A stretch of 64,000 bases of DNA, taken from sequence record JX128257; one strand, 5' to 3'. A program made the translations under genes and the position numbers. Positions within the stretch are counted from its first letter, which is position 1. Every line of letters starts with the position of its first letter. This DNA is from Escherichia phage ECML-4. Below the pieces are notes generated by a model, which was not told where the DNA came from, did not search any database, and worked only from the letters and a program-made list of their open reading frames with translations. Shown piece after piece: positions 12,864 through 15,128 of the stretch.

Positions 12864-12971
12864 AAAATTGGCGGGGTCTGAGGCTTTTCACCTCACCTGC
12901 TGGATTGGCCTCCAGCTGTTCTCTCTGGGGACTCGCTGTCCGGACAGCTATCCCTTAAACTATCGCCCCTT

Positions 12972-13085
12972 AATTCATATTGCTGTGGGTAATACCAAAG
13001 CGGAGGTTTGGAATCTCTCGCCCTATAGCGACCTTTAAACCGTTTGATCAGTCCGATCCAAAGGACTACCCACAGCAATATGAAT
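12972..13085. ncRNA. long perfect hairpin (20-bp stem, 74-nt loop); candidate structured RNA or RNase III site
   Basis: AATTCATATTGCTGTGGGTA at 12972-12991 is exactly complementary to TACCCACAGCAATATGAATT at 13066-13085. Confidence 0.4.
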
Positions 13086-13292
13086 TTGTTGTGTCCAATC
13101 AAGGACTGTCAACCTTTTATCCCGTTTGTGCATGATCAGTTCATGCAGGCCTCTTTGTGCGCCTCACGGCAACGCGCTTCTGTAGGTCATTGACTTGCAC
13201 CGTAGTCTCACCACAGGCGTTTATTTTTCCAGGGCTTTCCACTTACAAGTCTTAACCAGATCGGGATACGGGCTTGTAAGATCAGATTGGAC

Positions 13293-13371
13293 ACAACTTT
13301 GATGGCTCTAGGACTAAAGATCCCGCGTCACCCATAGACTTGGTTTATAAAATCTAGAGCCATCAAAGTTG
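13293..13371. ncRNA. long perfect hairpin (about 18-bp stem, about 41-nt loop)
   Basis: CAACTTTGATGGCTCTAG at 13294-13311 pairs with CTAGAGCCATCAAAGTTG at 13353-13370. Confidence 0.4.
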
Positions 13372-13745
13372 CAACCAATGTCGCAACTCGCACTTCAGCG
13401 TCTTCGTCTCGCTTCAGCACTTGTCCTCTACGCTCGGACCAAACGAGGCTGGCCGACAGAAACATGACACCACTCATCACTAGAGCGAGGATGTGGTTGA
13501 TAGCCACGATGCTATATCTCTGTCGCAGAGTGATCACACTTGTCAGGATGATCACTGTTTTGCGAACTTGAAAATACTGCGCCTGTCTCGGGTTTCCCCT
13601 TAGTTCGGCCTCTCATTGTTCGTCTAGTCAGGGAGCTACCCTTGATGACCAGCTTATTTTGAGATCTTCGCCAGCACCCACTAGTGTCTAGAATATGTAG
13701 GTGTCGAGGTCTGCAAGGCATTGCCCTATTTCATACAACGCTCTC

Positions 13746-13892
13746 TCAAGTACGCAAATCGAAGTTCTCTGGGCTTAACAGGTTCGACCCAACATGTTGT
13801 ATATCGCCTAACTTGCTCATGGGACGGACACATCTGTGTACAGACCTTGAGGGTTAAAAGATATACCCAGAGAACTTCGATTTGCGTAGCCC
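13746..13892. ncRNA. long perfect hairpin (23-bp stem, about 90-nt loop) nested in a weaker outer inverted repeat
   Basis: TACGCAAATCGAAGTTCTCTGGG near 13749-13771 pairs with CCCAGAGAACTTCGATTTGCGTA near 13867-13889; outer GGCATTGCCCTA / TAGGGCATTACTGCC near 13712 and 13980. Confidence 0.4.
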
Positions 13893-14062
13893 TTCACTTG
13901 CCAAAGATCAGGGCTAATAACAAGACTTCGCTCACATCTTTGAGGGCACTCAGTGTACAACAGGCTCCGATATTTCATAGGGCATTACTGCCTCGGATTT
14001 AAGTTGCCTTTCTCCTGAAACTCCATGCAGTCTCGCGTCTGACGCGGAATGCCCTCAAAGAT

Positions 14063-14290
14063 GTGGAGCCGTTTTAGGGAGTCGAACCCAAATGCTTGGC
14101 CAGCGCTGACCTTACATCCCATCTGACTTAGGCAACCCACCTCTGCTTACTCAGGAGCTTATCCCCTTTGGACAGTCAGATATAACGGCTTTGGGATTGG
14201 AGGAAGGACTCGAACCTTCTCATGTACGCTCCTGATTTCTCAGAAGTAGCCTGCTCCCATCGACCTATTAAGTACACGCTCCGCTCATTG
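14063..14290 (-). ncRNA. two tRNA-like remnants (T-arm plus acceptor-like 3-prime ends, no canonical cloverleaf)
   Basis: Minus-sense GGG-TTCGACT-CCC (around 14080-14095) and GAAGG-TTCGAGT-CCTTC ... CCA (14196-14225); upstream sequence does not give standard D or anticodon arms. Confidence 0.25.
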
Positions 14291-14477
14291 TTCGGCGGGA
14301 GCTTATTAATCACACCCTCCCGCCTATTGTTAGTGCGCCGAATTTTGTTATGAGGAATCGGAAGACCTCACTGGTGTATGGCTATTAAGCTACTGCCAGG
14401 AACGTGTTATCATTAGCGATTATTTTTGTGGTCAGTTTCTAAAAACCCGCAAAGTCACGCACAACGAAAACGAAAAC

Positions 14478-14542
14478 CTGTTTGAGTCCTAAACCTACCT
14501 GTCTTGGTCTCACATCGCTATGAGTGGCCAGGACTCAAACAG
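14478..14542. ncRNA. hairpin (13-bp stem, about 40-nt loop)
   Basis: CTGTTTGAGTCCT pairs with AGGACTCAAACAG. Confidence 0.3.
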
Positions 14543-14603
14543 CTTGCCGTTCAGTGAGTTAACTATACTTTGTAACCCGTTATTGATAAAACCTTTTATT
14601 TTT

Positions 14604-14690
14604 GTTGACGAGGGTGTGGAATCGAACCACACTTCTGAGCGCTGCCCCGTGTCACCAATGCACCACCTCACCATCGATTTGCCGGAACTT
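14604..14690 (-). ncRNA. tRNA-like element (T-arm TGTGG-TTCGATT-CCACA) without resolvable cloverleaf
   Basis: Strong T-arm signature on minus sense, but no complementary acceptor strand and no CCA. Confidence 0.25.
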
Positions 14691-15128
14691 ACGCATCCGG
14701 CCTCGTCCTGTCGGTGTTCTTCTGAATCCGGGAAGATCAGCAGGAACTATGAATCAAGTTAATTCAACCAACAGGAATCCTCGTGTTGCCCTTTGACGCA
14801 ACATTATGAACCCTCTATGAAGACTCATAATGTTGTCGGCGTGATGGAGATTAGCGCCCCCGACCTCCCCTTATATGTTGGTGTCGACTTGCCAACAGGG
14901 TGCTCTCTGATTCTGAGCTAATCACGCTACAACAGGGAGTTTCGTTCTCCGACGGTCAAGTGCGTCCACTGACACCAGCGAGGTGGATATTATGCCTCTA
15001 TTCACACAAGCCCCAGAGACTAGGGGTTCACTGTTTTCGGTTTCAAGCCTACTCACACTGTGCTGTTTCCCTCATGTTTGATACTTTACTGCAAGCCAGC
15101 CAATTTGAAAAATCCTCTCCCCTTTGAA

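Follow-up and report, generated by a model that had tools for sequence, protein, structure and literature searches.

Structured RNAs are encoded beside the transfer RNA (tRNA) genes of various phages, among them species 1 and 2 of T4, which date back to the 1970s, and the GOLLD and ROOL RNAs; to our knowledge, none of them has a known function. The cage structures of GOLLD and ROOL were solved in 2025, and Paddock et al. reportedly cleaved T4 species 1 RNA with RNase III in vitro in 1976. GOLLD and ROOL are covarying phage and prophage RNAs that often lie near tRNA islands and sometimes contain or abut tRNAs, including Met-tRNA (PMC12286853). Here we analysed a stretch of 64,000 nucleotides (nt) from Escherichia phage ECML-4 (JX128257), referred to as the window, in which a reading of the sequence alone had drawn attention to positions 12870–14900 as a stretch poor in open reading frames (ORFs) and packed with long perfect hairpins. 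We propose, with moderate confidence, that this stretch is the non-coding upstream part of a minus-strand tRNA operon and represents an island of independently folding structured RNAs that are processed into small RNAs. Like rnaC and rnaD of T4, these predicted RNAs are distinct from tRNAs yet encoded within a phage tRNA operon and on its strand; the T4 operon also holds a homing endonuclease gene.

The stretch matches positions 110361–112391 of NC_042061.1 on the reverse strand with 100% identity (Salmonella phage STML-13-1; Kuttervirus, Ackermannviridae), and at least 80% of its length is conserved in ~150 Ackermannviridae records. ARAGORN and Rfam place tRNA genes for Ile, Ser, Tyr, Asn, and Met on the minus strand at 11600–12863, abutting the hairpin region, and the flanking protein genes at 12470–12694 and 15333–15902 are also on the minus strand. 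With respect to transcription, the hairpin region thus immediately precedes the tRNA cluster. The sequence-only reading had likened the stretch to the small stable RNAs of the T4 tRNA region, and this analogy proved apt, since a tRNA cluster directly adjoins the hairpins on the same strand and the region holds a tRNA-like RNA built like T4 rnaC. Our comparison set comprised ~35 syntenic loci from GenBank phages and IMG/VR, covering Kuttervirus, Taipeivirus, Agtrevirus/Aglimvirinae, Limestonevirus, and Miltonvirus; labels such as L003 or L005 denote individual loci, either syntenic or with motif H. The architecture is kept in Kuttervirus, Taipeivirus, Agtrevirus/Aglimvirinae, and Miltonvirus-level relatives, and the flanking protein of the last is only 43% identical.

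Inverted repeats and module architecture

The region holds six perfect inverted-repeat stems of at least 13 base pairs (bp) whose loops do not exceed 200 nt; 500 dinucleotide shuffles of the same sequence averaged 0.006 such stems, and none reached six. Four stems are at least 16 bp long, against none in the shuffles. The other 62 kilobases (kb) of the window contain one stem of at least 13 bp. The whole 64 kb has eight perfect inverted repeats of 12 bp or more under the same loop limit, and six of them lie within 12972–14542. Additionally, the folding z-scores of the individual hairpins range from −6.9 to −9.0 against shuffles. All five hairpins named in the sequence-only reading (I4, I1, I2, I5, and s in the list below) were recovered at their places, with stems that are mutually unrelated in sequence and no families of direct repeats; its view that this is neither a CRISPR array nor a repeat family also holds, since the stems are unrelated and the region occupies a single place per genome in the Kuttervirus records. 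Its account nevertheless needs correcting, in that the functional strand is the minus strand and each helix closes a larger domain that covaries. It had passed over I3, the stems that close domains C and (imperfectly) F1, and a 14-bp stem 5′ of tRNA-Tyr; domains C and F1 span ~200 nt each, and their stems are inconspicuous as DNA repeats. The region further contains tRNA-like units, a promoter, and a pseudoknotted motif common to unrelated phages. The elements are listed in the direction of transcription, as follows.

14786–14796 / 14812–14822, minus strand: small hairpin s, stem of 11–12 bp, z-score −4.5
14606–14672, minus strand: unit a, a tRNA-like RNA of 67 nt that combines an acceptor helix with the T-arm GUGUGG-UUCGAUU-CCACAC
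14562–14589, minus strand: predicted sigma70-type promoter, TTATCA-16-TATAGT, with an A/T-rich upstream tract
14467–14553, minus strand: hairpin module I5, 13 bp perfect (14478–14490 / 14530–14542), ~22 bp when extended, z-score −7.1
14294–14468, minus sense: element H, a pseudoknotted RNA motif of ~165 nt
14191–14292, minus strand: unit b, a tRNA-like remnant with the T-arm GAAGG-UUCGAGU-CCUUC, z-score −0.6
14064–14190, minus strand: unit G, a 125-nt tRNA-like RNA
13933–13948 / 14050–14065, minus strand: hairpin module I3, 16 bp perfect, 19 bp with one G·U
13751–13773 / 13866–13888, minus strand: hairpin module I2, 23 bp perfect, loop of 92 nt, branched top, z-score −9.0
13559–13759, minus strand: domain F1, ~200 nt, with an imperfect closing stem (~13559–13574 / 13744–13759) that closes ~170 nt
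13380–13558, minus strand: region E, with a 36-nt block (13419–13453) that is 97% identical in all genera
13286–13379, minus strand: hairpin module I1, 18 bp perfect (13294–13311 / 13354–13371), ~24–26 bp when extended with G·U and mismatches
13088–13297, minus strand: domain C, ~210 nt, with a 13-bp closing stem (13088–13100 / 13285–13297) and a loop of 184 nt
12972–12991 / 13067–13086, minus strand: hairpin module I4, 20 bp perfect, loop of 75 nt, z-score −7.2
12866–12974, minus strand: module A, a 107-nt structured RNA, fold z-score −3.1
12788–12863, minus strand: tRNA-Met (CAU), called by ARAGORN and scoring 68.4 bits with the Rfam tRNA model, the first genuine tRNA downstream of the structured region
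12143–12214, minus strand: hairpin 6 nt 5′ of tRNA-Tyr, with a stem of 14 bp, two of which are G·U when read in the minus sense, outside the range first described and of the same kind

Modules A, I4, C, I1, E, F1, I2, and I3 tile 12866–14065 without spacers, and the last one on the minus strand ends 3 nt before tRNA-Met. The order from 5′ to 3′ on that strand is a, promoter, I5, H, b, G, I3, I2, F1, E, I1, C, I4, and A. Each of the long repeats closes one module by joining its 5′ and 3′ ends in a helix, and adjacent closing helices abut or overlap by a few nt. Specifically, I4 is closed by 20–22 bp with a three-way junction on top, and the closing stem of F1 is perfect over 15 bp in Taipeivirus and Agtrevirus. 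A transcript begun at the 14562–14589 promoter is predicted to have module I5 at its 5′ end; the stem of I5 is replaced by CTGTTTGGGGGTTAAG in Miltonvirus. Every genus, Miltonvirus among them, has kept the promoter block, though three different sequences occur upstream of it. Hairpin s is conserved in all genera except Limestonevirus and Miltonvirus. The core motif of domain C is confined to Ackermannviridae-sized contigs of IMG/VR, with two metagenome matches only. A sequence scan found no convincing intrinsic terminator inside the stretch and none separating the elements from tRNA-Met, Asn, Tyr, Ser, and Ile, and we infer that the array is co-transcribed with the tRNAs.

Covariation, strand, and a proposed processing scheme

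Homologous stems stay perfect or near-perfect while their sequences change across four to five genera. In I2, 8 of the 23 pairs have changed on both sides, and 98.3% of the alignment cells are paired, against 90.8% after shuffling and 20–52% with slid partners; the corresponding figures for I1 are 9 of 29 pairs and 97.2%, against 89.4% and 32–41%. For neither stem did any of 500 shuffles reach the covariation score. In I5, two-sided changes affect 4 of 22 pairs and many pairs are G·U. The I3 stem keeps its pairing through a series of different sequences (CACATCTTTGAGGGCA / ..GAGGACA / ..CTTAGAGGACA / CACATCTGGGAGGTATCT / CTCCATCTTTGAGGGCATTC / CACATCTCAGAGTTCGGT), as does that of I1 (CAACTTTGATGGCTCTAG / ..CTGG / ..ATAGCTCTGG / CAACTTTGAGGA.. 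/ ACAACTCTGATGGCTCTC), which also carries a conserved loop motif, UAUGGGUGAC, and a G·U pair kept in 9 of 10 sequences. In L004, both arms of I4 have changed from GCTG to GTCG. The leader hairpin of tRNA-Tyr has perfect, covarying versions in relatives (TCTACCGCCGCGTG, TCTGGAACCCGGTT, TCTGCCGCTGCGTG), and L027 has a 36-nt perfect palindrome there.

The larger domains covary as well, as determined by alifold. Compensatory pairs number 6 of 28 in module A (G·U 21 cells vs A·C 0; 11 distinct sequences), 13 of 47 in domain C (64 vs 4; 22 distinct sequences including Miltonvirus), and 15 of 49 in domain F1 (56 vs 0; 15 distinct sequences), while region E shows a single compensatory pair, with G·U in 83 cells vs A·C in 1. 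The search for compensatory changes among related phages, which had been proposed as a check on the hairpins, therefore comes out in their favour: two-sided changes are found across relatives, and the one-sided changes give G·U in one sense only.

A palindrome maintained as DNA would show no asymmetry between G·U and A·C, so that the one-sided changes bear directly on strand. A first, strict count of G·U gave 6 vs 1, which is too few events, and alignment-based counts were used in its place. Across the stems of I1, I2, and I5, 67 cells distributed over 19 columns hold G·U when read in the minus sense, and 6 cells from 5 columns hold A·C (binomial p=0.007 on columns); modules A, C, and F1 together give 141 vs 4 cells. 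The same bias is present inside the symmetric perfect-repeat cores, which were defined strand-neutrally as DNA repeats and provide the cleanest strand evidence. Together, covariation and G·U asymmetry point to RNA-level selection on the minus strand, and from these alignments we conclude that the stems are, as predicted structures, RNA helices selected on the strand of the tRNAs. Module A and unit G are, moreover, 94–100% identical between genera, compared with ~76–80% DNA and 65–68% protein identity for the flanking 189-amino-acid (aa) gene; specifically, module A is 94–100% identical in Klebsiella Taipeivirus and Dickeya Limestonevirus, and unit G ~96.5% identical across genera.

These features suggest the following scheme. 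The sigma70 promoter would start a transcript with I5, followed by H. The precursor would be cut by RNase P and trimmed at the 3′ side at the tRNA and tRNA-like units, and RNase III would probably cut within the uninterrupted closing helices of 16–24 bp. These cuts would release discrete, exonuclease-resistant small RNAs of roughly 80–210 nt. The same stems may insulate the folding of each module and may act as short homologies for module swapping between phages. The predicted stems are uninterrupted double-stranded RNA (dsRNA) helices of 16–24 bp, that is, of the approximately two turns by which RNase III substrates are recognised, and processing of the closing helices by this enzyme is plausible. 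The earlier proposal of a processed precursor of stable RNAs is thus borne out as to RNA-level function and the T4 analogy, and its RNase III part stands as a plausible prediction. The array may be pictured as beads on a string rather than as one globular RNA. Our best guess is that the released RNAs would be tRNA-related or host-directed, for example tRNA mimics or decoys for host enzymes or defences, or Hfq-type regulators like STnc100.

The locus of Escherichia phage mistaenkt (Suspvirus, L020 866–973) contains a genuine tRNA-Ser (875–963) that is bracketed exactly by a 10-bp inverted repeat. This leader-trailer stem extends the acceptor stem and is a supporting detail for helix-bracketed processing.

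tRNA-like units, exchangeable cargo, and motif H

Several units of the island resemble tRNAs that have lost the anticodon loop. The predicted fold of unit G consists of a 6–7-bp acceptor helix, a long hairpin at the D-arm position, the T-arm GGG-UUCGACU-CCC, and an encoded CCA, and an arm capped by a GCGC tetraloop takes the place of the anticodon loop. In unit a, the sequence GGGC-AGC-GCUC, with a 3-nt loop, stands where the anticodon loop should be. The 5′ part of module A resembles a tRNA 5′ half whose anticodon loop has collapsed to the palindrome CUGUCCGGACAG. Replacement of the anticodon loop by a small palindromic loop is seen in four different units (CAGCGCUG, GCAGCGCUC, UGGCGCCA, and CUGUCCGGACAG). 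The hairpin tips are palindromic hexamers, namely AGCGCT (twice), GGCGCC, and TCCGGA (14606–14672, 14064–14190, 12866–12974; L009 7839–7927). Such recurring anticodon-less tRNA mimicry suggests, as a matter of speculation, decoy or scaffold roles.

Units G, a, and b and the I3 cargo were not called as tRNA, either by ARAGORN or by the Rfam tRNA model RF00005 at the gathering threshold and at E<=10. The T-arms of the tRNA-like units draw weak matches of the transfer-messenger RNA (tmRNA) clan only, and their anticodon position is occupied by 3–4-nt loops. The equivalent of unit a is annotated as 'tRNA-Ala' in phage EP75; this label is probably wrong, because there is no anticodon loop. At the position of unit a in Serratia phage KNP4 (L033 548–639, RNA sense of the extracted region), ARAGORN reports a 92-nt 'tRNA-Cys(aca)' with a long insertion, which may be an intron-containing or aberrant tRNA-like RNA.

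In the Rfam search, only the five tRNAs were recognised at gathering and permissive (E<=10) thresholds. Sub-threshold mir-* and tmRNA matches were rejected as generic hairpins and T-arms. A miniature inverted-repeat transposable element was rejected as well, the stems being unrelated and single-copy. Integron attC-like sites are likewise rejected, judging by the letters of the region, which offer no core sites or extrahelical bases and no integrase nearby, in a lytic phage.

The island is modular. The boundaries of BLAST blocks and of insertions and deletions coincide with module boundaries, and I4, b, and a each come or go as whole units among relatives, with b cleanly missing in L013. The stem of I3 is conserved while its interior, or cargo, is swapped among phages for unrelated interiors of 36–110 nt; in EP75 and L025, this cargo is a tRNA-like top whose canonical T-arm lies 2–4 nt from the 3′ strand of the 19-bp helix. 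HNH homing endonuclease genes occupy different module boundaries in phages SS3, Bullseye, and pSal-SNUABM-02 (L003 2083–2538; L005 2673–3086; L032 3901–4377), in parallel with the segB homing endonuclease inserted in the T4 tRNA cluster.

A known small RNA (sRNA) has also entered the locus. In Klebsiella Taipeivirus L005, positions 3389–3603 (RNA sense) encode a full-length sRNA of the STnc100 family (RF02076; 53.4 bits vs a gathering score of 47), inserted between the I1 and E equivalents and beside the 36-nt block that corresponds to window positions 13419–13453. A partial copy is present in the Agtrevirus-like contig L029 (6904–7013), and the Rfam covariance-model search found no copy in the window. 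STnc100 is a prophage-encoded sRNA related to PasD (bioRxiv 10.64898/2026.05.13.724894). STnc100 and PasD are Hfq-type base-pairing sRNAs of lambdoid prophages and differ in this from the long-stem hairpins described here. The full-length copy inside the locus in Taipeivirus indicates that the locus collects horizontally moving phage sRNAs.

Element H extends well beyond this family. It matches ~340 phage records outside Ackermannviridae and occurs in 136 of 5426 complete E. coli genomes, within prophages, being the only element of the region with E. coli chromosomal copies. In Ounavirinae (Suspvirus) it again lies inside a tRNA island in the same sense as the tRNAs; in lambdoid prophages it lies between Q and the holin gene, downstream of PR′-6S-tR′ and co-oriented with the late transcript; and in Klebsiella and Acinetobacter phages it lies just upstream of the major tail gene in the opposite sense. 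Schitoviridae and Drexlerviridae-like siphoviruses contain it too, and further loci are L020, L021, L022, L023, L036, L037, and ~20 from IMG/VR. The structure derived from 22 distinct sequences comprises P1, P2, and P3, together with a pseudoknot in which the loop of P3 pairs with a segment further downstream; the loop of its terminal hairpin, GUGUGAUUAAUAA, is invariant. Paired cells amount to 96.6%, vs 83.4% after shuffling, and 12 of 25 pairs have changed on both sides, including two of the four in the pseudoknot. The genomic context favours the minus sense in three of four settings and not in the siphoviruses, and the symmetry of the helices does not settle the strand. H has no match among Rfam families, and its presence in hundreds of phages of several families makes it a candidate new RNA family. 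Identity with a Pas sRNA is unlikely, since the Pas sRNAs, set apart here by their descriptions, are restricted to Escherichia/Shigella and rare in phage genomes. In L036 (3900–4260), the lambdoid-prophage H has a copy of the same hairpin arms on either side (GGTAAGAGCA... / ...TGCTCTTACC), and these arms could form two flanking hairpins or one long stem enclosing H.

Two further observations concern the borders of the island. Between the 189-aa gene and the RNA island, a 48-aa minus-strand ORF at 15129–15275 has a strong ribosome-binding site and a hydrophobic N-terminus (MFYMMLLLILLIGITCSLLG...); it is annotated in EP75 and looks like a real small membrane peptide. At the other border, the ~90 nt from tRNA-Met to the start of a 74-aa ORF (12700–12790) retain ~95–97% identity in Taipeivirus and Limestonevirus, where this block adjoins module A rather than tRNA-Met, and form a further over-conserved non-coding block.

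Alternative readings and known relatives in kind

The same data can be read in other ways. The modules might be parts of one large 'ornate' RNA that works intact like GOLLD or ROOL, ~1.2 kb long from unit G to tRNA-Met or ~1.7 kb from the promoter, with the helices as struts. In its favour, the covarying domains follow one another without spacers up to 3 nt from tRNA-Met with no convincing internal terminator, and GOLLD and ROOL are often found near tRNA islands, GOLLD env-38 lying beside a Met-tRNA and tRNAs sometimes lying inside (PMC12286853). We nonetheless regard this as unlikely: no GOLLD or ROOL match appeared in Rfam even at E<=10, whole modules (I4, b, a, the I3 cargo, and the STnc100 insert) come and go among close relatives, host RNase III would be expected to cut uninterrupted 20-bp dsRNA, and no covarying inter-module helices were found among 11 sequences, a number of limited power. 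The tRNA-related content could instead mark a graveyard of decaying tRNA genes, with leftover fragments, chance structure, and no current function. This would account for the T-arm-containing units a, b, and G that cannot be called as tRNAs, for the dispensability of b and a, and for tRNA repertoires that differ strongly among relatives; it is very unlikely given that dozens of compensatory changes keep the helices across genera, that conservation of A and G exceeds that of the adjoining protein gene, that the promoter is conserved, and that the same architecture recurs in the relative whose flanking protein has diverged to 43% identity.

The repeats might also act as DNA, as hairpins or cruciforms in replication or recombination or as endonuclease targets, or be products of quasipalindrome correction by template switching, with no RNA function. 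The stem cores are perfect Watson-Crick helices of 13–23 bp within each genome, indel and cargo-swap boundaries coincide with stems, and HNH homing endonuclease genes have inserted in the locus in relatives, all of which would suit such an origin. We find it very unlikely indeed, because one-sided changes give G·U on one strand only (67 vs 6 cells in the stems and 141 vs 4 in A, C, and F1), the I1 G·U persists in nine of ten sequences, the tRNA-Tyr leader hairpin pairs only with G·U, loop interiors and domains C and F1 covary as well, and loops of 40–180 nt disfavour cruciform extrusion. That short ORFs, such as the 59-aa gp136 or a 69-aa ORF at 13512–13721, are the functional products is scarcely credible. 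Several records annotate 'hypothetical proteins' here, and in two other genera one 69-aa ORF can be aligned along 58 aa that are free of stops; however, the tblastn matches are scattered over the two strands and several frames, most of them are partial, stops interrupt many of them, and the same DNA shows RNA-type covariation. The annotated gp136 (13328–13507) ends inside the conserved I1 loop motif UAUGGGUGAC and its frame is lost in Taipeivirus; its 'hypothetical protein' annotation is probably wrong, as it overlaps a covarying RNA structure and its frame is not conserved. The earlier view that the stretch is non-coding is upheld, since no ORF is kept as an ORF across genera.

Several points count against the reading we favour, namely an island of independently folding RNAs processed from a tRNA-operon transcript. 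The folding z-scores of units G, b, and a are unremarkable (−0.6, −0.6, and +0.5, respectively), and unit G shows no covariation because it hardly varies. Recent horizontal transfer, instead of purifying selection, could explain why A and G are so nearly identical between genera. The Limestonevirus loci have no perfect stem that reaches 11 bp. RNAalifold run on the minus sense favours G·U by construction, and perfect Watson-Crick stems with indels at their boundaries are also expected from palindrome maintenance or recombination at the DNA level. The literature searched yielded no transcriptome, end-mapping, or RNase III work on Kuttervirus or Ackermannviridae.

A possible role of the tRNA mimics that lack an anticodon loop, and of the dsRNA clamps, is that of decoys against host defences that target tRNA or sense RNA. 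The locus gives many structured RNAs beside tRNA genes in lytic phages of E. coli O157, Salmonella, and Klebsiella that are easily grown and used for biocontrol, and whose hosts are available as rnc, rnpB, hfq, and defence-system mutants. Near-identical phages differ naturally in whether they carry I4, b, a, or STnc100 and in the type of I3 cargo, which amounts to a ready-made deletion series. Current annotations assign spurious 'hypothetical proteins' to the region, along with a doubtful 'tRNA-Ala'.

Among described systems, T4 provides the closest single RNA. The predicted fold of rnaC, with its closing helix, long hairpin at the D position, small-loop hairpin at the anticodon position, and canonical T-arm, has the plan of unit G. 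The likeness is limited to unit G and is one of predicted folds rather than homology, as no sequence similarity was found. T4 encodes a pair of such RNAs, rnaC (species 1) and rnaD (species 2), 3′ of its tRNAs, whereas the present locus has more than ten modules over ~1.8 kb located 5′ of them; most of these modules (I1–I5, C, and F1) do not resemble tRNA, and their closing helices are much longer than those of the T4 RNAs.

The closing helices themselves recall the RNase III stems of the T7 early mRNA and of rRNA leader-trailer pairs, which are sequence-unrelated helices of about two turns that bracket RNAs; the helices predicted here are 16–24 bp long and surround structured or tRNA-like cargo. 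The T7 early-mRNA sites have internal loops and resemble one another, unlike the stems of this locus. YrlA Y RNAs combine a long stem formed from the two RNA ends with a tRNA-like domain that includes a T-arm, and their long stem is the anticodon stem. The I3 versions of EP75 and L025 are similar in design, with the difference that the long stem extends the acceptor side; there is also no Rfam match and, because the stems share no sequence, no conserved Ro-binding helix. The unit of promoter and I5 is reminiscent of the PeSLs that Arbiol et al. are said to have described in 2010, each an early-type promoter with a stem-loop bounding exchangeable modules in plastic regions of T4-type phages. 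PeSLs reportedly form a repeated family flanking protein-coding ORFs; in contrast, this locus has one promoter, unique stems, and RNA cargo.

For a chain of covarying domains beside a Met-tRNA, GOLLD and ROOL are the nearest kind. They too are elaborate covarying non-coding phage RNAs, and the present locus shares their location beside a tRNA island; it differs in matching neither model, in having modules that are individually dispensable or swappable, and in its enterobacterial hosts. We tentatively suggest that Ackermannviridae possess a family-wide, hitherto undescribed locus of at least ten new structured RNA classes, made up of long-stem modules, tRNA mimics without an anticodon loop, and H, which together might be the enterobacterial counterpart, in genetically tractable phages of E. 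coli and Salmonella, of the 'tRNA-island RNAs' represented by GOLLD, ROOL, and T4 rnaC. The elements themselves are new RNA families of a known kind, structured RNAs in phage tRNA islands, and are unusually numerous and modular.

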